DNA of 64,000 nucleotides from Bdellovibrionota bacterium (GTDB taxonomy: Bacteria > Bdellovibrionota_C > UBA2361 > OMIW01): positions 320 through 64,319 of the forward strand of contig JBIIHQ010000003.1 in the NCBI GenBank assembly GCA_044235645.1, read 5' to 3'. A program made the translations under genes and the position numbers. The notes under the pieces were generated by a model. It saw nothing but the letters and a program-made list of their open reading frames with translations, was not told where the DNA came from and made no database searches. Shown piece by piece: positions 1 through 50,169 of this stretch (its first letter is position 1; each line of letters opens with the position of its first letter).

Positions 1-1188
1 GTCGGTGTACCCATTGTTCATCTTCCCCTCAAGGGTCGGGCTGTCAGAGTATCCGACCGAATAAATACTTCCGTCGAGGCCGACCGTAACACCGAAAACC
101 CACTCCGTCTGCAAGCCCCCCATCAGTCGCGTCCACGCCTTAGTCCCATCTGGGCTCAACTTGGTTAAAAAAACATCCTGCCCGCCGCTATTCATCTCGC
201 CGTCGAGGGTGGCGCTACTTGAGACTCCTGTCATGTAGACGCTCCCATCGGTACCAGTGGCAAGAGCGGTCCCCTCCTCTAAACCCGCCCCCCCCACGAG
301 CCGTGTCCACCCCCCCTCCCCTGAAGGTTGCTGCCCCTTCTCCCGCACAACCAGCACCTTGGAGGTACTCCGGGACAAAAAATTGACTCCGAAGAGCTTC
401 GAAAATCTTCCACTTCGCGTTGTGGAACTGAGTCCTTTGAGCGTCACCTCCGCCGCAACGAGTTCTTGCGCCTCCCGATGCCTCGCCATCCACATGCCTC
501 GGGACGGTTTTGAGGTTATTTCGTTTGCCCCATATTTGACAAAGTGGCGTTTCGCCTCCACTTCGGTATTAATTGGCGGGCTAAAGCCGAGCAGGTCAGG
601 GTTCGCCGCGAGATATGTTTGCCAATCAAAGTCACCCGGAAGCAGCGATGATTGAAACGACTGACCACTTTCCCAATCATCAACGAGCGGAGTTGGCAAG
701 CTAAGTTGAGGCACTACCGCACTACACGGCTTTAACCCTCCCAGGCTTCGGTCAGAAAGATCATCGACACTGCCGAGCCTAAGGGTTGCCTTCGCTAACG
801 TTCCTCCGCTCGTGTCTTCGAAAACCGCCTCTATCGGCTCGATTGTTCCTTCTGCTGGTATGCTCACTGCTGGAAGCGACACACTTTCTACATTCTTTAC
901 GTCCATCGCACGCCTTCCGGCATCTAGCGCAAAACGGACCCTACCAGCATTCCGATTTATATGATCAAATTCGCACCCGGCCAACTCGTACGCCTTCAGT
1001 GCCGCAATCCCAATGCTCCGCACTCGACGATCTTGCTCGATGTTCTCTTGATACGCGCGATATCCGTCATACGCGAGACCGAACCCCATCAGAAATCCAA
1101 TCACGACAAAGGGAGCGGCAATAGCAACCGTACCGCCCTCCCGTGGCCATCGAACGCCCCGCCCACGCCGCTGCACCGAGCTCACCAT
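1..1188 (-). CDS. Membrane-anchored protein with C-terminal SBBP-type beta-propeller repeats. It is partial: the 3' end lies beyond the window start.
   Basis: Manual translation of the minus strand gives one open frame from an ATG near 1188 to position 1 with no stop. That is why it is absent from the M-to-stop ORF track. The N-terminus has a hydrophobic anchor (TVAIAAPFVVIGFLMGFGLAY). The middle carries a YLAANPDLLGF motif. The C-terminal part has repeats of the form GxxxWTRLxGG...DGSVYxTGxS...GGQDVFLTKLSPDGTKAWTR, which is typical of SBBP beta-propeller repeats. Confidence 0.5.
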   Translation of the reverse strand, partial: MVSSVQRRGRGVRWPREGGTVAIAAPFVVIGFLMGFGLAYDGYRAYQENIEQDRRVRSIGIAALKAYELAGCEFDHINRNAGRVRFALDAGRRAMDVKNVESVSLPAVSIPAEGTIEPIEAVFEDTSGGTLAKATLRLGSVDDLSDRSLGGLKPCSAVVPQLSLPTPLVDDWESGQSFQSSLLPGDFDWQTYLAANPDLLGFSPPINTEVEAKRHFVKYGANEITSKPSRGMWMARHREAQELVAAEVTLKGLSSTTRSGRFSKLFGVNFLSRSTSKVLVVREKGQQPSGEGGWTRLVGGAGLEEGTALATGTDGSVYMTGVSSSATLDGEMNSGGQDVFLTKLSPDGTKAWTRLMGGLQTEWVFGVTVGLDGSIYSVGYSDSPTLEGKMNNGYTD

Positions 1189-1222: not shown

Positions 1223-1909
1223 CTATCCAATCGTCTCCGTGCGAGTCACGGAGAACGACGGCAGCAAACTACCTATTCCCGACACATTACGCATTCTCGA
1301 CTGTACCGCCCCGTCGAAGTAGCCAGTCGCTGCGACCGTCACTTTGCGGTACTTGCCCAGTCGAGGCTCAACCCCCACATCAACCGGGCTATCATCATAC
1401 CTTACCAACAAATGAACCCGGGTCAGACTCGACGAGCCCAGCGAGGAAATGATGAACTGCCCCATCGTCGTCATGGTTATCCAGGCCCCACAGGCGATAT
1501 CGTTCTGCCCACCCATGCAATTGCGCGAGCCCTCAGGTATCGCGTTCGACAGAGTCCAGTTATAAGTACCCCCATTGGCATCCGGAATAAACGTGACCTC
1601 AAACTGCCGCTGCGCGCCTGTCGATGTCATCGTCGGAGTCGGACGTAACCCATTCCCCAGTACTGCCTGGTTGACAGCCCACGATACCGCTCGGCTCGAC
1701 TGATGCAGCGTGTTTGTTGCAACGATACCGACGAAGCCGGCAATCGCAGCTGGCACCAGCAATGCCGACTCAACAAGCGCTGCACCTCGTTGGCGTCCTC
1801 CTGAAGACCTGAGAGACCTCGGGGAACTAAGCGTTTCTAAAGCCTTCGCGCCCTTCAAAAAGACCCCCTGTTCTTTCCGGGTGTTTGTCTTCATTCCCTC
1901 CTCCCTCAT
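1223..1909 (-). CDS. TadE/TadG-like pilus assembly (pseudopilin-like) protein
   Basis: 228-aa ORF. The N-terminal ALVESALLVPAAIAGFVGIV segment matches the hydrophobic motif of the TadE-like family. The gene lies between two other pilus-like genes on the same strand. Confidence 0.5.
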   Translation of the reverse strand: MREEGMKTNTRKEQGVFLKGAKALETLSSPRSLRSSGGRQRGAALVESALLVPAAIAGFVGIVATNTLHQSSRAVSWAVNQAVLGNGLRPTPTMTSTGAQRQFEVTFIPDANGGTYNWTLSNAIPEGSRNCMGGQNDIACGAWITMTTMGQFIISSLGSSSLTRVHLLVRYDDSPVDVGVEPRLGKYRKVTVAATGYFDGAVQSRMRNVSGIGSLLPSFSVTRTETIG

Positions 1910-1960
1910 TAACCCAATCTGACACAGTCCATAGGTCGCAGGCTTCGATCGCTTCCCTCA

Positions 1961-3652
1961 TCAAGGTTGATTCTGAATAAGGCCTGGCACCCCACTTCCC
2001 GCACAATTTTGCCATTCATAGACGTAGTATCTACATTGATTGCACAGCGAGTCGTCTGTTGTGCCCGGAACTAAACATCCTGCCCCGGATTGAACGCACG
2101 TCGGTGTTGTCCCTCCATCACCCGCCGACTTAATGAAGTGCTTACCGGCCCAATGACAGGAGGTATTGCACTGACCATCGGAGTCCTCGTGATTTGAACT
2201 ATTTATACGTATTCCCGACCCATTATCACACATTTTGACACAAGACTTCGTGATATAACTTTCGTTTCTTCTATTCCCACAAAAATCCTGCTCCCATGTG
2301 GGCTGCCTGTTGTTCATGTTACTGTCACAGGTATTCGCCCAGGGGCCAGACTGCGACGACCAGCCACCCCGATATTCGGTAGTCTGATTTCTTTTGTTGC
2401 CACATGCGTCCTGCTCCCACCGCAGTCGCGATTGCTTTCCCTCTGTATTACAGCTTGTCGACCAGAGGCCATACTGCGTATTCCACCCACACGAGCTATC
2501 ACTCGCACGACAACCCGCCACCTCCGTATGGTTCCTGTTCGGCTGGCACCCCCCCCTATCGCGTTCCCACCTCCATTGACGCCGCTTTCCATCGGCTTCG
2601 CAGTAAGGGCTCCACTCTCTATTCGGATTATCTTTGCCCCAGCCGGACTGGAGCTGATCAAAGCACGGCTGACACCGCGACTCCGAAATACCCGACGAAT
2701 TACCACAGGAGTCGCTGTATGAGTTCGTCCTCGTTCCGGGACCACACTCCGCGCTCCAAGCCGACCAGCTACCTGATGATTGTCGCGGCTCACAACTCGG
2801 AGCCGTCACTGGCTGAGCCACCTGAGGATAGAACGGCACGGCCATCACCATCGGATACGAACCCACAATTCCTTTCACCTCGACCACTGCGACTACTTCG
2901 GTCGGCAGCTTAGTGCTCACTGAGGAAAGACTATTCCATGAACCTAGCTCAGCGGCCGGCACCTTGATTATCCGACAGGTTCCCCGCCCCCCAGCCCGGC
3001 TGGTGCTGGGTTGTGCCTCAGAGTCCCTGAGACCTTGCAGCCTCTTTCGCGCATTAAACCTATCGTGCGCCCCCTCCATCTCCGTCTCTGAAGCTGTGTT
3101 AGCACTAGCGACCACCCCACACGCATGATAATTATTGAGAGATGCCCAATTACTAGGGCCCTCGTTCCAATCTTCTACTAATGCCGAAGTCAACGGCGGC
3201 AGATACCCAAAGTTAAGCTCCTCGAGCCTCGCCTCGGTACCAAGCCGGTCAAGGTGCCTCACTTTCTTGAACGACACTCCTCCAACACCCGACATCGCCG
3301 ATGCAAACCTATCAGATAGACTTTTACGCGCCGTTTTGAATGCCGTATACTCGGGCCCCTCCCCCCTGTTCCAAAAATCGCCCAAGAGAGCCTTATTCCC
3401 TCGAGCATCATCGACAAGCTCGGTAAGCTGATGGTAAGCGCTGTTGTACCGATGCATTACCACGAGGGGTTCGGCAACCCCGACCCCCAGCGCGACCACC
3501 ATAGGTGTCACAATCGCAGCCTCAAGGAGCTGAGCACCGCGCTCCGCTATCCTCGCCAAAGCTCCTCGCGTCTTCGTTGTTCGCTTACCTGCCATACCGA
3601 GCCTCGTCTCCCTACGTTCTACATCGTGGCAGCACGGAGGTGTTACAGACAC
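1961..3652 (-). CDS. Large TadE/TadG-like protein with C-terminal Cys/Trp-rich repeats that resemble thrombospondin type-1 repeats
   Basis: 563-aa ORF. The real start is probably the internal Met at about 3595 (MAGKRTTK...). The N-terminal LLEAAIVTPMVVALGVGV segment is a TadE-like motif. The C-terminal half contains WSAWSAECGPG followed by three units of about 38 aa: RWERDRGGCQPNRN, RWEQDACGNKRN and TWEQDFCGNRRN. Confidence 0.55.
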   Translation of the reverse strand: MSVTPPCCHDVERRETRLGMAGKRTTKTRGALARIAERGAQLLEAAIVTPMVVALGVGVAEPLVVMHRYNSAYHQLTELVDDARGNKALLGDFWNRGEGPEYTAFKTARKSLSDRFASAMSGVGGVSFKKVRHLDRLGTEARLEELNFGYLPPLTSALVEDWNEGPSNWASLNNYHACGVVASANTASETEMEGAHDRFNARKRLQGLRDSEAQPSTSRAGGRGTCRIIKVPAAELGSWNSLSSVSTKLPTEVVAVVEVKGIVGSYPMVMAVPFYPQVAQPVTAPSCEPRQSSGSWSAWSAECGPGTRTNSYSDSCGNSSGISESRCQPCFDQLQSGWGKDNPNREWSPYCEADGKRRQWRWERDRGGCQPNRNHTEVAGCRASDSSCGWNTQYGLWSTSCNTEGKQSRLRWEQDACGNKRNQTTEYRGGWSSQSGPWANTCDSNMNNRQPTWEQDFCGNRRNESYITKSCVKMCDNGSGIRINSSNHEDSDGQCNTSCHWAGKHFIKSAGDGGTTPTCVQSGAGCLVPGTTDDSLCNQCRYYVYEWQNCAGSGVPGLIQNQP

Positions 3653-3967
3653 GTCCGCCCTCGCCCCATGAAACTTAAAATCAGCTCTGTGGGCTGTAGC
3701 CAGATCAACCCCGTTCCCTTCTCTTCAAACCTCTATCGCCGAAACAACCCCCATTCTGTTCTATGAGGATAGCCCGCATCCAATTCCAAAATCAAACTTT
3801 TTTTGAGCGCAATTCCGATCCGCGTCAAAATGACGGTCGTTGGAACGGGGGACGGACGAATGAGTCGGCCTGAGAAACGGCGGATGTTCGTGGGTAAGGC
3901 CAAAATGACCCCTTACTCTCAGCTCGCCCGACACCCGTTTTTGCGCTTTACCCTCAACTTTTCGCTG

Positions 3968-4789
3968 CTAGGCGCTCCACGTTCGAATTGAACCGTAAAT
4001 TTGTGACACCAAACTCTCTGACCTCTGGAGCTGTTCGAGCAGGAGATTCGACGCTGTCTCCTGTTGAGCAGTCGCCCTCTCCAGATTCGCTGTCTCCTCA
4101 ACCTCATCGATTGAACGCATCACCACCGATGCCTCATCATACAATCCTACCATCACCCCAAGATACGTCACCGCCGCCGATGCCCGCGATCGACCAGCGT
4201 TAATCACCCCTCGACGACGTTCAATTTCCTCAAGATATACCTCGAGGTCGGCGAGCTCCGTTGCCGGGTTACCGGTCGAAGATATATCGATTGATCCGAG
4301 TTCAATCGAAGCTCCATCCCCCACGGTCACCTGAAAGGACCCCGAGTCCTCCTGACTTGCTTTAACGGTTATTGATGAGAAATCTCCAAAAAAAATGCTC
4401 TTCTCCCCAAACTTTGCTGATCTTATGAAATCGTTAGCCTGAGCAATCAGATCGTTTGCCTCGCTATTGAGGCTCGCTCGCTCAGTCGGATCGGTTGTCG
4501 CTGACGCTTCCTCAATAACCGCTCTTACATCCCCCATAATCGCCTGAACTCCCTCAAGGGCTGCATCGGCGACGTTCAGGTACGATATCCCATCATTAAG
4601 ATTGCTTATTGTGGCAAGACCGGTTGTCACCTGAGCATCGAGGCCATTTGCTACCCCGATACTAACCGAATCGTTCTCCCGCTCTCCCGTCAAAAGCCTC
4701 TTCTGAATTCGCTCGACATCCCAGGTCGATTGCCGAAGGTACCCTACCAACCACGACGTGACGACGTTACTACTCGCTAACACACTCAC
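3968..4789 (-). CDS. Flagellin / hook-associated protein (FlgL)-family protein
   Basis: 273 aa. The N-terminal region (RLLTGERENDSVSIGVANGL...NLNDGISYLNVADAALEGVQAIMGDVRAVIEEAS...DPTERASLNSEANDLIAQANDFIRSAKFGEKSIFFG) follows the conserved pattern of the flagellin N-domain (RLSSG..IN...DDAAG...NDGIS...A.GAL.E...LQR.RELAVQ...DR..I..E...L). The C-terminal domain matches only weakly. Confidence 0.5.
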   Translation of the reverse strand: MSVLASSNVVTSWLVGYLRQSTWDVERIQKRLLTGERENDSVSIGVANGLDAQVTTGLATISNLNDGISYLNVADAALEGVQAIMGDVRAVIEEASATTDPTERASLNSEANDLIAQANDFIRSAKFGEKSIFFGDFSSITVKASQEDSGSFQVTVGDGASIELGSIDISSTGNPATELADLEVYLEEIERRRGVINAGRSRASAAVTYLGVMVGLYDEASVVMRSIDEVEETANLERATAQQETASNLLLEQLQRSESLVSQIYGSIRTWSA

Positions 4790-23805: not shown

Positions 23806-25182
23806 ATGAATTCACAGTACGGAACCAAAAGGAATCCCGACTTGAGGGTCGTAACCCCAAGTGACAGTACCGCACACTTACCGGAGAGCGGCGCGGAATT
23901 CTGTGAGTTAGTCAGGTGGGGCCTCGAAGGCACCGATGGGACAGATCAACAAGTGCTGCAAGTTGCAGAGGATATCCTTCTTGAATTATCAACAGACTTC
24001 GATGAGTCCCCGTCGCCCTCGAGCCGAGTCGCAGCGGTTTATAATCTTCTGAGAAACGCCCCTGATCTTCAGGAAAGGCTGTGGAAGGAGATTGTCGGAG
24101 ATAACGATACAAATAAGGTTGAAGAACTTGTCAAAAGTCATCAGATATCATTTGTGACATCCCGACCAGCTTTAAGAAATGACCTGCTTCAAACCCCAAA
24201 TGCCCGAGAGTCAGTCGGCATCATTGCCGATGCGTTGCTCATGGCTCATCCCGATAAGAAAAGCGTTAATTCCCTAATGGCCTCGCTCGACCCAGCTGCA
24301 TTCCGGTTTATCGGCGATGATGGTATCTCGGTTCTGCGGAGTTGGGCAGGGTTCGATTCCGTGGCTCCCGGTGATTTATCCGACATCCCGAAAATAGTAG
24401 CGAGGGCAGTTAACGGGATTAGGCTTAGATCGCGAGCGCAGGATGAGCAGGCTGAAACCTTGGTGAACCGCATGTTACAGTATCCGAGGGACGCATTTGA
24501 AGGAGGATTTAAAACACAATCGGGCCGACAAGTACGCGAGTTCGATCCGGATTCGCTAAAACAATCAGTGACTCGTTTTCTGTCGAAACTTCGTACGTTC
24601 CAGGGATTGGATGGTCATCCGGATGAGTCAACTATCAACCAATATGGATCCTCCCTTCCCGAGATGTCCGAGTTCGCTGCTCTGTCACCTCGGTGTAAAC
24701 AAGATGTTCTGAATGGATTGGCAGCGGGAAGGGACAAAATAGAACAGCTGCTCACAAGTCGAATGCAAGCCGAATGTATCGGGCATGATTGCGAAATGCT
24801 AGCAGCCAGAATTCTTGAGAAAATGGACTCTCTTGAAGGCATGAGTGGGATCTCTTTCGTCCAATCAAGAAAGGAGTCAGATACCGACCATCACGGTGTG
24901 GATTTTCGCGTTACAACTCCATACGGGGTGGCTCATATCGACGTCAAAGGGAGTTATTCGGCAGAGCACTCAAGTGATGCCGAAAGAGCCGATTTCTCCA
25001 ATCGGAGGGGATTAGCGAGGGGAATAGCATTTCTACCAAATGATAACGGCTCAGTTCGCATTTACCGATTTCCTGAGCAAGCGGTTGTCAATCGGTCGCT
25101 ATCGGAGAATGAAATAGCGGGCAATATTAGTTCAGCAATCAAAAGAGCCTTAACTCTTCCCCCACATCTTCTTGGTCAGTAA
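23806..25182 (+). CDS. Hypothetical 458-aa protein in a lower-GC island. It may have a C-terminal PD-(D/E)xK-like segment.
   Basis: Long clean ORF. GC of this gene is about 47-50%, against about 58% for the flanking genes. No known domain recognised. The C-terminal HHGVDFRVTTPYGVAHIDVKGSYS segment has a D...(I)DVK arrangement. Confidence 0.5.
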   Translation: MNSQYGTKRNPDLRVVTPSDSTAHLPESGAEFCELVRWGLEGTDGTDQQVLQVAEDILLELSTDFDESPSPSSRVAAVYNLLRNAPDLQERLWKEIVGDNDTNKVEELVKSHQISFVTSRPALRNDLLQTPNARESVGIIADALLMAHPDKKSVNSLMASLDPAAFRFIGDDGISVLRSWAGFDSVAPGDLSDIPKIVARAVNGIRLRSRAQDEQAETLVNRMLQYPRDAFEGGFKTQSGRQVREFDPDSLKQSVTRFLSKLRTFQGLDGHPDESTINQYGSSLPEMSEFAALSPRCKQDVLNGLAAGRDKIEQLLTSRMQAECIGHDCEMLAARILEKMDSLEGMSGISFVQSRKESDTDHHGVDFRVTTPYGVAHIDVKGSYSAEHSSDAERADFSNRRGLARGIAFLPNDNGSVRIYRFPEQAVVNRSLSENEIAGNISSAIKRALTLPPHLLGQ

Positions 25183-45220: not shown

Positions 45221-48196
45221 ATGAATTCTCCCGCACCTCTCCAGTGTCCGTCTCCTTATCGTCTATTCACTATCCACCCCTCCGGTCTCTCTAAAGGAGA
45301 CTACCAACCCAAATCTTCCCTCTCTGCTCCCTGCCTTCCCCCTGGTAACACGCCGATCGAAGACCTCCCCCCGTTTGTTCAGCGGATCGCTGAGGCCTTC
45401 TCAACCCGACAGGCACTCCTCGCCTATGCGCGACATGTGGCTATTGGCGGGCGCGACGTTCGTCCGACTCTCCCCCTTGCAACCCACTGGATTGATGCCC
45501 TTGATGGAACGAACCTGATAGCTCTGAGGGACGGCAATCCATGGCAGGCTGACGCTACCCCCTCCTCCGACACTCATTACCGATCGTTCCCCGCATCGGT
45601 TCTCTGTTATGAGAGCCATCTCGCTGAATTCAGGTACGACTGGGAACGCAGCTCACGATTATTTCTCTTGAGACTCCCCGATAGCGAGCACCAGGAGATT
45701 CTTGCAAACTGTTCGGATGGCCCCAGACCGACCGTTCCAGAGGCGTTTGGTTATCTGAGATACACCACACAATCGGACGGATCTATCTGTATCTTAGAGA
45801 TTCACAACGAACTTTTCGGTCGACTTACCTCGAGCATCCTCAAGGAGCAGTACCAAGACTGGGCGGTCGAACTTCTTGATGGCTTCACCCAATATGTCGC
45901 GCGTGCTGCCGATATAGTGAGCGTTATCGTCAAGCCCGAGGACGCCCAACGTTTTAATAAAAATCTGACCCGAACCATCATCATTCCCCCAGCGTCAATG
46001 ATGGAGGAAAGGTACGGCGATCTCGATTGCGGGCGCCCCACCCCCTGGGCGCAGCAGAACGAGGATGGCCTCTGGTATCTACCAGGGATAGACACCGCGC
46101 AGATCGTCGAACGATACGTTGAAGCACCGACCCGATTGGGATTTGAGCAGCAGACCCTCGAGGGCTCTTTTTTTGCTAATAAAGAGGAGCTACCCCGAAT
46201 AACCGAGGGACTCATCCTCAAGGTACTCTCTCCCCACTCAGACCGAGTAGTTCCGAAAAACACTCTCATCACCGAGCTCCTCCATCGCTGCTCTGCTGCC
46301 CCACCCGCAAGTCCTTCTCACAACAAACTTGATTATTTTAAACGGGCGGCGGAGGTTCTTTCGTCATATATCAACGGTGGCGACATCGAATCACCCCGCC
46401 TTCTGAGGACACTCTCGGTGCCGTCGGTGAGACCCAACGCACTCACGCTAGCCCCCTCCTTCGAGGTAGCCCCCGCTTTCACCGTCAGCCTTGAGGAGAT
46501 AATTCCGCCCTCCCTCGTCCAGGGTCTGAGGGAAAAATCTCCTGAATTCGCCTCTCATCTCCGCGAACTAACCGCGGTCCTTAACCGCCTCATCGATCCG
46601 AACTTCACCGTCATAAGCCGAGGATTCCAAGGGGGCATGGCCGATGATTGGGCTGAACTACCAGATCCTGAGCTTCCTCCGGGTTGCTACCTCTTTTTCG
46701 TCCAAGCACCTCATCAGAATAGACACCCCTCAATCCGAGTGGTGGTTGTCGATGATTCGAAAAACCATCGTATGTACTACCTGGGAATTAAGGGAGCAGG
46801 GATCGCCGAGCTCGGCGGCTGGCCCGTCCATAAACCCGGAACGGGAGAACGTGCCCCGATCTATCGAACAGAAGGAAAGGATTCATTCGATCGGGCACCG
46901 TGGTGGGGTGGACTGACCTCTGTCGAGGCTCTTGAAGAAGCCCGCTATTCGCTCGCCCTTGCGACCCATCTCGCTGAGTTTCTTCCACACCTCGCAGACC
47001 GGGCATTAATCCCCCTTCGTCTCTCACTTCCCACCATGCTTCCCACCTGGAGCGAGAGCGACACGAGTTGGCAACTTCCGGAAGACTATGCCACGACGGT
47101 GCTCTCTCTCGGCCGACAGAGCTCAGCGCCTCCTGAGATTCACCAAGGCGAATCACCTAAGGAAGCCTCCGACCGCACCCAAAGCGTTACCATCGCGGGG
47201 GGCGAAGATCTCAACATTCTCGACCAGGTCGTCCGAGACACCGAAACCCTGCCTTCAGCACCGGATGAGGCCGCCATCATAGGACCCAGCAATCTGCTTG
47301 AGGACTACCCTGTCGAGCATCTCGTCGTACCGGAGGCATCGCCACAACCTGAACCGCCTCCCCCCGAGCTTGCTACCCTTATCTCAACCTTTCCAAGCGA
47401 CGTTCGTATCCACACCTTTTTCGATCGCATTTTCAATGGACCGCGGAATCAAGACACCCCTTTCGATCCCATCCGAGATATCAACAAGACGATGCGGTTC
47501 CTCTACAATGTGCATGGATTCTCTCTGAATGAACCAACCGAGCAGTACGTTCCTCCTGACCTCATCCTCGACCCGCCCGCGATCTGCGAATATCTCGCGA
47601 TAATTGCCGAACTCAACAAGGAAAACGCCCAAGAGATCTACCGACGAGTCTGCGGTGACACCCTCGCGATCATCGAATCAGTTCACCACCGAGGCGGTCA
47701 TCTTGGCGGAGGGCGAATCGAGCCAACGCTGGGGGTAATAGTAGGTGCGAGGAACGGGGGTGTGACCGCGATGAGAAACATCGATATCGGAGGGGGAAAT
47801 CAGAGCGGAAAAGGGGCGGGCATGCACGACGTCAGCGCATTATGCTACTTTCCATGGATGAACTCCCCGAGGGATCATTCCGACGATCAGTGGTACCACC
47901 AGCAGTACCTCAACACGCTTCAGGCGTTTGACCTCAGCTATTGGGCTGAAATGGAGCAATGTATGCGCATCTTTCTCACTGGCGCTCCGTATGAGAAAGG
48001 CGCCCGATGGATACGCCACCAGCTGACCGCCCTCAATGACGTCACCCTCTACTCCGCAGCCCCCTCAACCTCCAACATCCTGGCGGCAGCAAAGCTTATT
48101 CAAGAAGCCGAGCAGACACGAGCGCGCGTATCGATCGATGAAGTTAAAGGGCTTGTTATCCCCTCGGTGCTCCATCTCCTTTTCTCAGACTCATAG
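45221..48196 (+). CDS. Large orphan protein (991 aa) with a Gly-rich segment near the C-terminus. It belongs to a locally repeated gene family.
   Basis: Long uninterrupted ORF. No known domain recognised. Its C-terminal region (HHRGGHLGGGRIEPTLGVIVGARNGGVTAMRNIDIGGGNQSGKGAGMHD...) has a degraded paralogous copy at 50228..50690. Confidence 0.6.
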   Translation: MNSPAPLQCPSPYRLFTIHPSGLSKGDYQPKSSLSAPCLPPGNTPIEDLPPFVQRIAEAFSTRQALLAYARHVAIGGRDVRPTLPLATHWIDALDGTNLIALRDGNPWQADATPSSDTHYRSFPASVLCYESHLAEFRYDWERSSRLFLLRLPDSEHQEILANCSDGPRPTVPEAFGYLRYTTQSDGSICILEIHNELFGRLTSSILKEQYQDWAVELLDGFTQYVARAADIVSVIVKPEDAQRFNKNLTRTIIIPPASMMEERYGDLDCGRPTPWAQQNEDGLWYLPGIDTAQIVERYVEAPTRLGFEQQTLEGSFFANKEELPRITEGLILKVLSPHSDRVVPKNTLITELLHRCSAAPPASPSHNKLDYFKRAAEVLSSYINGGDIESPRLLRTLSVPSVRPNALTLAPSFEVAPAFTVSLEEIIPPSLVQGLREKSPEFASHLRELTAVLNRLIDPNFTVISRGFQGGMADDWAELPDPELPPGCYLFFVQAPHQNRHPSIRVVVVDDSKNHRMYYLGIKGAGIAELGGWPVHKPGTGERAPIYRTEGKDSFDRAPWWGGLTSVEALEEARYSLALATHLAEFLPHLADRALIPLRLSLPTMLPTWSESDTSWQLPEDYATTVLSLGRQSSAPPEIHQGESPKEASDRTQSVTIAGGEDLNILDQVVRDTETLPSAPDEAAIIGPSNLLEDYPVEHLVVPEASPQPEPPPPELATLISTFPSDVRIHTFFDRIFNGPRNQDTPFDPIRDINKTMRFLYNVHGFSLNEPTEQYVPPDLILDPPAICEYLAIIAELNKENAQEIYRRVCGDTLAIIESVHHRGGHLGGGRIEPTLGVIVGARNGGVTAMRNIDIGGGNQSGKGAGMHDVSALCYFPWMNSPRDHSDDQWYHQQYLNTLQAFDLSYWAEMEQCMRIFLTGAPYEKGARWIRHQLTALNDVTLYSAAPSTSNILAAAKLIQEAEQTRARVSIDEVKGLVIPSVLHLLFSDS

Positions 48197-49173: not shown

Positions 49174-50169
49174 TTAGGTCATCGGCCAAACGTAAGGACG
49201 ATACGTGCCTTCGGGGAAATCAACGGAGAGATCCCCACTTCGGTACGCTTCAGAGGCGGCTTTAAACCGAAAGTAGATATCGAAGTACCACGCTTTCATC
49301 TCGGCGCGACGAATGTTGCACGCCGATAGGACACGAGGGCGATGAGTGGTAGGGCTCGAGGTTCTTGTGGATTTTGGTAACGAGCCTGGCTTGATTCGTT
49401 TAAGGGCGGTTCGACCGAGAAAGCGCTTCCCCTCAGCAGCTCGGGCTTTGAGGATCTCTTGACGACGTTCCTCAAGCCGACGAGTCATGAGGAGGGCGTA
49501 CTCCTTCTGGGAGAGCTTTTCGTAGCCGGGGAGACGGGCGTATTGAAGGGTGAACTCCTCGAGAAAATCTCTCTTGTTGACCTTTTTCCCCCACCGAGAG
49601 GCTTTGTAGTAGGCGGTCCAGTTCATGACCTTAAAGGTTCTCTTTATCCCCCACACGGCGTCATGGAAGCAGTTGTAGCCAGGGTAGTCAGAGATTTTTT
49701 CAACAAGGCCATCCTTGACCGGCTGGAGGACGGCGTAAAAGAAGTAGTTCTCGATATCAGTGCGGTCCGCGAGAAACTCGTTTGAATATCTTCTGCCCCA
49801 GACACCACCGCCCGAATATGAGGGTGTATATCGGGGGACGGCGCGGGCTATCGTTGATTTGAGGTCACGCAGGAAGTGGGCGCGATTATTCTTGTTGTTA
49901 TGCGCGACGATGTGCAGGTGGTTGCCCTCAATAGCAAAGCCGTAGAGGGTGATCGTACGCCGAGTGGCGTACTTGGCAGTCAGCCCAAGAATCCGCTGCT
50001 CGAGGGATTCGTTGTTGACGAACCAGAGACGCGAATCTCTGGTTCGACTCGTGATAAAGTCTGAGTGTTCGTTCGTTTCGATGCGGGGATGGCAGCCCAT
50101 CGGTGTTGTCCTCCGAGAGAGATAAAGTAGATCTCTCTCGGTTCGACACGTTGAAGAAATAGTTGCCAA
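49174..50169 (-). mobile_element. IS200/IS605-family HUH (Y1) transposase-domain protein, long form (331 aa)
   Basis: LYGFAIEGNHLHIVAH provides the HuH motif. YAVLQPVKDGLVEKISDYPGYNCF matches the Y..NPVKAGLV..DYPWSS catalytic-Tyr helix of Y1/RAYT transposases. The gene is flanked by repeats and by a pseudogene fragment. Confidence 0.7.

Follow-up and report, generated by a model that had tools for sequence, protein, structure and literature searches.

The stretch examined here is a 64,000-nucleotide (nt) segment of the genome of a Bdellovibrionota bacterium (NCBI GenBank assembly GCA_044235645.1, contig JBIIHQ010000003.1, positions 320 to 64,319 of the forward strand), referred to as the window throughout, and its subject is a minus-strand gene at 1961..3595, here called gene 1. 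The favoured reading, held with a probability of about 0.55, is that gene 1, the first in a three-gene tip module, encodes a modular minor pilin (pseudopilin) of a Tad/Flp-type (type IVc) pilus, whose tail would serve as a tip-displayed binding module. This reading is preferred because the anatomy of the module matches the Kil/Tad Tip complexes of Myxococcus and the concept of the modular pilin. Specifically, the gene 1 protein carries a prepilin-type leader motif and a tail of repeated units, the first of which resembles the thrombospondin type-1 repeat (TSR); its gene heads a recurring three-gene cluster, and its C-terminal modules are swapped among homologues.

The features of the module are as follows, with residues numbered along the 544-amino-acid (aa) protein and the basis of each assignment in brackets.

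1961..3595, minus strand: gene 1, modular pilin-like protein P0001, 544 aa (NCBI, JGI, ENA and Logan calls)
3536..3595, minus strand: predicted class III (prepilin-type) leader, residues 1-20, basic, ending in Gly20 (read from the sequence)
2801..3535, minus strand: conserved N-domain, residues 21-265 (AlphaFold2 model, family alignment, weak TadE Pfam matches)
3461-3535, minus strand: hydrophobic alpha1N segment, residues 21-45, part of the N-domain
2666..2794, minus strand: unit 1, residues 268-310, TSR-like, pattern C..WSAWSAECGPGTRT..C..C..C (hhalign, PDB profile, AlphaFold2)
2492..2665, minus strand: unit 2, residues 311-368, tryptophan/cysteine (W/C) repeat of the RWERDRGGCQPNRN type (repeat z-scores)
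2369..2491, minus strand: unit 3, residues 369-409, W/C repeat with RWEQDACGNKRN (z-score, AlphaFold2)
2231..2368, minus strand: unit 4, residues 410-455, W/C repeat with TWEQDFCGNRRN (z-score, regular expression, DNA pair)
1964..2230, minus strand: 8-Cys domain, residues 456-544, with CNTSCH and SLCxxC (alignment, stand-alone copies)
1223..1894, minus strand: gene 2, small pilin-like protein, 223 aa, with QRG/AALVE (66 nt downstream of gene 1)
1..1188, minus strand: gene 3, TadG-like, partial, the 5' part of a gene that runs off the window (34 nt after gene 2)

The Gene 1 Protein and Its N-Domain

An earlier note, made from the sequence alone, had marked an open reading frame (ORF) at 1961-3652, and this ORF is real and lies on the minus strand of the window. 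Traced mechanically, it reaches a GTG at 3652 and encodes 563 aa, while the public calls of the identical protein, P0001, use the ATG at 3595, which yields the shorter, 544-aa protein beginning MAGKR. The base composition around the gene is unremarkable.

The leader ends at a predicted cleavage site, ERG/AQLLE (the slash marking the point of cleavage), that places Gly at -1 and Glu at +5 and so matches G/XXXXE, the prepilin-peptidase motif given for Flp and Tad pilins (PMC12075869). The full context, ERG/AQLLEAAIVTPMVVALGVGV, leads into the hydrophobic alpha1N segment, and the G/XXXXE motif is kept in most of the 15 family members in the alignment. In an AlphaFold2 model built with this 15-sequence alignment, residues 20-260 are predicted with a predicted local distance difference test (pLDDT) score of 80-94 as a helix (10-65), a second helix and then a beta-sheet, with conserved cysteines at positions 159 and 207. 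This modelled arrangement of long helix plus sheet appears pilin-like. Distant relatives that share the N-domain pass the Pfam TadE model (P0019 at 28.9 bits; P0020 in the precomputed table), and the family profile ties these two to the gene 1 protein at E 7e-5 and 1.5e-4, respectively. Sub-threshold TadE matches occur at the equivalent N-terminal position in P0005, P0002, P0006, P0017 and the gene 1 protein.

The Cysteine-Rich Tail

Beyond the N-domain, the tail consists of four W/C units followed by a separate 8-Cys domain, and the C-terminal 279 aa contain 7.9% Cys and 5.0% Trp. The earlier note had described this half of the protein as a low-complexity array; the composition is indeed biased, but the tail is not low-complexity, and its Cys pattern is conserved.

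Unit 1 (WSAWSAECGPGTR) keeps its Cys pattern in orthologues and contains, at residues 277-287, the WSAWSAECGPG motif that had first drawn attention to a thrombospondin likeness. Aligned with canonical TSRs by hhalign, the profile of unit-1-type units reached a probability of 96% (E 4e-9), but the alignment took in just 25 columns, those of strands A and B, and left out the C-terminal half of the TSR. When 12 units of this type, drawn from family members, were combined in a profile and compared with the PDB, all 18 matches were TSR domains, among them those of the circumsporozoite protein (the best, 4e-4), F-spondin (3e-3), TRAP (8.5e-3) and CCN3. The combination of WSxW with C(S)xTCGxGxxxRxR, which marks strands A and B, occurs in unit 1 only, and near-canonical CSVTCGGGTRS units are seen in homologues of gene 1. 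The AlphaFold2 model places a beta-hairpin at 285-309 (pLDDT 78-82 across the unit) and three strands in unit 3, the hairpins of units 1 and 3 together spanning pLDDT 74-82; unit 3 itself scores 74-82, and confidence is low for unit 4 and the last domain. When the C-terminal 283 aa were modelled by themselves, the result was poor (pLDDT 55), and a Foldseek search with that model was not meaningful. The units fall short of the ~55-60 aa with six Cys (three disulfides) of a TSR, measuring 41-58 aa with 3-5 Cys. Judged on its sequence, unit 1 alone among the four units is demonstrably TSR-like.

Units 2-4, which share the form RWE.D.CGN.RN, are on the evidence of shuffle tests true repeats of one another (units 3 and 4, z=13.6; units 2 and 3, z=7.8; units 2 and 4, z=4.7), and the similarity of unit 1 to them is marginal (z = 3.1 at best). 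Across all six reading frames of the window (128,000 aa in translation), the regular expression W..W..C..C[GQ][NP] has four matches, and all of them stand in tandem within gene 1. With hhalign, units 2-4 gave a probability of 0.9% against TSRs and 5% against unit-1-type units, neither significant, and their profile retrieved nothing usable from PDB sequences. Because the profile thus has no significant similarity to TSRs, unit-1-type units or PDB sequences, units 2-4 would form a separate W/C repeat type, possibly a very divergent derivative of the TSR. The picture of a C-terminal half built from TSR-like repeats therefore needs revision: it suits unit 1, but neither units 2-4 nor the final ~89 aa, which belong to an unrelated Cys-rich domain. 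The three (R/T)WE(R/Q)DxCGNxRN units of the earlier description do exist, but with lengths of 41-58 aa and start-to-start spacings of 50 and 41 aa in place of a uniform 38.

At the DNA level, the sequence at about 2000..2700, earlier called "visibly repetitive", is not so. TRF detected no relevant tandem array in 1800-3800, and the sole relevant direct repeat is a 32-nt pair (2265-2296 and 2388-2419) that is 78% identical, lies 123 nt apart and connects units 3 and 4. Unit 4, which has no counterpart in the closest homologue, P0004, is probably a duplicate of unit 3.

The last ~75-90 aa of the protein constitute an independent domain and not another TSR-like repeat. Its CNTSCH motif is invariant in 12 aligned sequences, and the domain stands by itself at the C-terminus of small lipoproteins (P0009, P0012-14 and P0022); two further lipoproteins from lake metagenome-assembled genomes (MAGs), with long low-complexity linkers, also carry it (L007 9671-10210 and L008 9623-10222). 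Neither Pfam nor PDB sequences gave a match to the domain. CNTSCH fits the CX3CH pattern, which makes it conceivable that the motif binds haem (as a heme-c site) or a metal.

A Family with Exchangeable Tails

Only two relatives, P0002 and P0003 (~47% identity), came out of a word-indexed search through 5.8 billion proteins. With the alignment of these proteins, a HMMER scan of 1.84 billion representative proteins retrieved 23 at E<=0.001; repeating the protein search with the 15-sequence alignment gave the same three proteins and nothing further, and a metagenome scan added one more member of 923 aa (L011). Twelve of these relatives combine the N-domain (~260 aa) with differing tails (P0004-P0008, P0010, P0011, P0015-P0017, P0019 and P0020). 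The small lipoproteins named above match the last ~75 aa only, and a remaining group matches through TSRs or TSR-like units: P0023 with eight Pfam TSP1 repeats (3e-107), P0024 with one, and P0021 with two TSR-like units and no Pfam match. On the constant N-domain, homologues of gene 1 bear various tails: TSR-like units in differing number, one or two copies of the CNTSCH domain, a Hint domain, or a long region of SPM type.

Several of these proteins have features of interest in their own right. The Hint domain (intein/hedgehog-type autoprocessing) ends P0010 (~290-395) and P0017 (~359-447; L010 10001-11512), where it replaces the Cys-rich tail; Pfam Vint matches P0010 at 2e-6, and it is unusual for a pilin-like carrier to be paired with a domain that cleaves itself. 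In P0005, P0006 and P0016, the long C-terminal part carries the PF26745 'SPM' family (precomputed Pfam), as do residues ~600-900 of L011, and the SPM-type region includes DxNGDG motifs like those of EF-hands or dockerins. P0023 (L020 6001-7917; GCA_964615765.1) is a 638-aa protein with eight canonical TSP1 repeats and a dockerin-like C-terminus. It is encoded on a compact, prokaryote-looking 242-kb contig, and full-length TSRs therefore seem to be present in bacterial MAGs.

The Three-Gene Module

Genes 1-3 are a conserved three-gene module of the TadE/TadF/TadG type. The order of gene 1, a ~200-aa gene and a 530-640-aa gene is found in the window, at L005 (the P0002 locus), L006 and L013, at L015/L016 and at the P0004 and P0005 loci; at the P0007 locus (L019) the genes are shorter but keep this order, and at the P0017 locus (L010) the order is permuted. 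The contig of P0006 stops within the gene downstream of gene 1, so that just two genes are readable there. Positional counterparts of gene 2 in L010 and L019 match Pfam TadE (3.4e-9). Gene 3 has a hydrophobic N-terminus without Glu5 (EGG/TVAIAAPFVV), a conserved N-domain of ~330 aa and SBBP beta-propeller repeats, the last recognised by Pfam (23.8 bits, for the longer L003 copy) and by the NCBIfam SBBP lipoprotein family (2.7e-15); in L005, gene 3 also shows a weak match to Pfam Tad (PF13400; E 0.097). Orthologues of gene 3 have Laminin_G_3 and crystallin domains in place of SBBP. Because the tail of gene 3 varies in this way too, both large proteins can be described as a constant carrier with a variable tail. 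These two neighbours fit the earlier suggestion of a surface-appendage cluster, through the QRG/AALVE motif of gene 2 and the hydrophobic N-terminus and SBBP repeats of gene 3. No pilus family of NCBIfam matches any protein of the module.

On the 321-kb JGI contig, gene 2 is called as P0025 (179 aa), with a start ~44 codons further downstream than in other calls. It is probably truncated, and would lack the predicted leader and cleavage motif.

Relation to Known Pilus Tips and Adhesive Modules

The closest parallel is found in Myxococcus, where the Kil/Tad Tips are encoded in scattered three-gene clusters (kilL/M/N) whose products, TadE/F/G-like minor pilins, form a helix-bundled trimer with variable, disulfide-rich tip domains (PMC12075869). 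As with KilL, KilM and KilN, the module described here comprises three adjacent genes with G/XXXXE leaders, one small and two large with C-terminal extensions, and across loci it presents three clustered TadE/F/G-like genes of which one is large with a variable distal domain. Further points of likeness to the Myxococcus Tips are the position of the clusters away from core pilus genes, the variable distal domains and the many Cys predicted to form disulfides. Orphan minor-pilin/tip loci far from the core tad genes have also been described in Bdellovibrio (bioRxiv 10.64898/2026.07.08.737194). M. xanthus possesses the paralogous clusters tip1-4 (Herrou et al. 2025, PMC12075869), and several paralogous modules may co-occur here: four members of the N-domain family (P0001, P0005, P0006 and P0007) come from JGI sample 3300059473, and P0005 and P0007 are found together again in sample Ga0157600 (L016, L019). 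Such co-occurring members could be several paralogous tip modules of one genome, as in Myxococcus.

The likeness to KilL/M/N is drawn from architecture as described. Unlike in the Myxococcus Tips, the TadE-like first protein bears a long modular tail besides the TadG-like one, the modules themselves (TSR-like unit, W/C repeats, CNTSCH domain and SBBP propeller) differ from those reported, and the neighbouring genes are flagellar; any link of the present module to a Tad machine or to a predatory lifestyle would be conjectural. With TadE, TadF and TadG of the canonical tad loci (Aggregatibacter, Caulobacter CpaJ/K/L and Pseudomonas), the module shares an N-terminal hydrophobic segment of TadE type, marked by Gly -1 and Glu +5, and a TadG-like partner that lacks Glu5 and has a large C-terminal module. 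In those loci, however, the genes lie at the end of the tad operon, while the present module is an orphan whose first gene scores under the Pfam TadE threshold.

A second parallel is with modular type IV pilins such as PilB (vWA) and PilC (lectin) of Streptococcus sanguinis, as presented in the survey by Raynaud et al. 2021 (PMC8179133). There, as here, a pilin carrier is joined to C-terminal adhesion-type modules, the grafts are diverse and display at the tip is expected. Those pilins carry the IPR012902 (type IVa/b) class III signal; the leader of gene 1 is of the Tad type, and its carrier, at ~245 aa, is far larger. No TSR-like module is described in the passages of that survey consulted here. 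As for the TSR itself (PF00090, PF19030), the W-S-x-W-S ... C-G-x-G-T-R-x-R core of its strands A and B is present in unit 1 too, and the units stand in tandem in a predicted extracellular, disulfide-rich protein whose homologues include the near-canonical form. The TSR-like units are nonetheless shorter, at 43-45 aa, with 4-5 Cys where a TSR has 6, and they lack a Pfam match or a significant structural match; units 2-4 are a separate type.

Taken as a whole, the gene 1 module is most likely a variant of a known pilus-tip design and not a new kind of system. If this is correct, the recently proposed scheme of swappable minor-pilin tips of Tad pili (PMC12075869) extends to an uncultured freshwater lineage, variable cargo is borne by the TadE-like partner as well as by the TadG-like one, and the displayed modules gain a TSR-like unit, a new W/C repeat, a new 8-Cys CNTSCH domain shared with lipoproteins and, in relatives, a Hint domain. 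A small bacterial family of shortened TSR-like units is also relevant to the origin of this adhesive fold. The practical value is modest, with 23 representatives among 1.84 billion proteins, an uncultured organism and a function that we infer.

Proposed Mechanism and Competing Explanations

Under the favoured reading, a prepilin peptidase of the TadV/CpaA type would remove the 20-residue basic leader after Gly20, and the alpha1N helix, now starting AQLLE with Glu5, would anchor the protein in the inner membrane. The products of gene 1, gene 2 and the TadG-like gene 3 would then bundle their helices to form a priming complex, whose final place would be the distal pilus tip. In this arrangement, the N-domain would act as carrier and the C-terminal 280 aa would project outward as a disulfide-stabilised stalk and ligand-binding head, made up of the TSR-like unit, the three related W/C-rich ones and the terminal 8-Cys CNTSCH domain; the SBBP propeller of gene 3 would provide a second exposed module. 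Leader cleavage, pilus assembly, tip location, adhesion and ligand binding are predicted properties of the gene 1 protein.

A number of results weigh against this reading. The genes tadA/cpaF, tadB/C, rcpA/cpaC, tadV and flp are all missing from the 64-kb window, Tad machinery genes are likewise missing from the related loci with listed genes, and the 372 nt between gene 1 and its upstream neighbour contain no small ORF of the Flp type; the adjoining genes are flagellar and not Tad, and flagellar genes occur near the module in three lineages. Gene 1 itself reaches 13.9 bits against Pfam TadE (PF07811; E 0.062, residues 39-72 of the 563-aa ORF), below the gathering score of 22.9 bits, and gene 2 has no Pfam match. 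An N-domain profile found no match among PDB sequences, and Foldseek retrieved no pilin structure from the PDB for the gene 1 model. Since Tad secretion genes were seen neither in the window nor at the related loci read, display on a pilus is putative. The adhesin on a Tad pilus that the earlier note had envisaged thus keeps its Tad-type, pilin-like character and a tip display that agrees with PMC12075869 and PMC8179133, set against the missing Tad genes and the flagellar neighbours; similarly, its TadE/TadG-type N-terminus is borne out by the hydrophobic segment, the G/XXXXE motif and the distant members that pass TadE, but not by the sub-threshold score of gene 1 itself.

Absence of pilus machinery nearby, together with the weak TadE score and the presence of the CNTSCH domain on ordinary lipoproteins, which reach the envelope without a pilus, would also fit a hydrophobic N-terminal segment that stays uncleaved and serves as a signal anchor. 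In that case the protein would be an adhesin acting by itself, anchored in the inner membrane and exposed in the periplasm or at the surface, or a subunit of a short type II secretion-like pseudopilus, and would never be part of a long pilus. We consider this unlikely: a simple membrane anchor would not readily account for the conservation of Gly -1 and Glu +5 across a divergent family, the gene 1 protein is always accompanied by two further pilin-like genes, and the model has a pilin-like helix-plus-sheet fold. The gene context raises another thought, namely that the three proteins are anchored or exported accessories of the flagellum, or of a flagellum-linked surface structure, co-inherited and co-regulated with flagellar genes. 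In the window, a flagellin-like gene of 273 aa lies 372 nt upstream of gene 1 on the same strand:

3968..4789, minus strand: flagellin-like gene, upstream neighbour, given as context only and not counted as part of the module (Pfam Flagellin_N 8.8e-10, Flagellin_C 22.7 bits; NCBIfam flagellin families)

Moreover, flgB-flgC-fliE-fliF-fliH-fliI-fliJ follow directly downstream of gene 3 in L005/L006/L013 (L005 5658-12292, L013 5250-8290), and FliW is encoded 5.5 kb upstream of the module in L012 (13-498). Yet the neighbours differ by locus, and flagellar genes are absent at the P0004 locus (where a ferredoxin gene is next), L010, L018 and L019. A transposase flanks the module in L005, no module protein matches a flagellar family, and all have prepilin-type N-termini, which are absent from flagellar export substrates. 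Synteny among related genomes can account for the common neighbourhood, which could reflect inheritance or co-regulation, and a flagellar role is very unlikely.

A different doubt concerns the repeats only, whose resemblance to the TSR may be convergent, a short WSxWS..CGxGTR motif having arisen in an unrelated small disulfide-rich hairpin. In its favour, the Pfam TSP1 models (PF00090 TSP_1 and PF19030 TSP1_ADAMTS), a check proposed in the earlier note, detect nothing at E<=1 in the whole protein, its C-terminal 278 aa, P0002 or P0004, with P0023 as positive control at 3e-107. The hhalign and PDB-profile matches of unit 1 span just 16-25 residues, the units have 4-5 Cys in 41-58 aa compared with 6 Cys in about 55 aa in a TSR, and units 2-4 are unlike TSRs. 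Foldseek likewise returned nothing at E<=0.001 for the gene 1 models, its E-values being 0.016 or worse; even so, the top-ranked weak matches are proteins of the TSR fold, namely properdin (E 0.016), pleiotrophin and midkine. Against convergence also stand the uniformly TSR identity of the 18 PDB matches, the CSVTCGGGTRS units of the homologues, and the ability of the full-length family profile to pick proteins with Pfam-verified TSP1 repeats out of 1.84 billion at E 8.7e-4. Convergence is accordingly a possible but doubtful account of the resemblance.

Returning to the pilin-tip reading, it is tempting to extend it to a so far unrecognised class of Tad-pilus tips, interchangeable and occurring in freshwater bacteria that are uncultured, whose carrier pilin would display a short-form TSR (4-5 Cys, ~45 aa), new W/C repeats and the new CNTSCH domain, in which the flagellar neighbourhood would co-regulate the identity of the tip with motility, and which would bear on the origin of the TSR. 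This is a speculative and rather improbable extension. Were it true, the flagellar embedding would echo the dependence of the Myxococcus Tips on an apparatus derived from a type III secretion system, and a short bacterial TSR would have implications for where this domain, so far regarded as an invention of animals and apicomplexans, came from.

Other Observations on the Locus and the Window

Directly upstream of the P0002 module in L005 lies a DDE transposase fragment (DDE_Tnp_1, 1e-9; 1-552, minus strand), which hints that the module is mobile. In the gap upstream of gene 1, a sigma-28 promoter was considered on the basis of a GGCGATAG box noticed by eye, and was dropped for want of a convincing -35 element; scans for sigma-70 promoters and terminators performed no better than shuffles. 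Scans of the whole 64-kb window detected neither a tRNA gene nor any Rfam family that reached its gathering score, and several long ORFs had no Pfam match at E<=1e-5 (45221-48196, plus strand; 23806-25182, plus strand; and 49174-50169, minus strand), one of them encoding 991 aa. The remainder of the window is of a housekeeping nature, including a leucyl-tRNA synthetase, a second class I tRNA synthetase, a menF/menD/menH-like cluster and two photolyase-family genes. Finally, the window encodes a lipid A acyltransferase, which points to a diderm organism.

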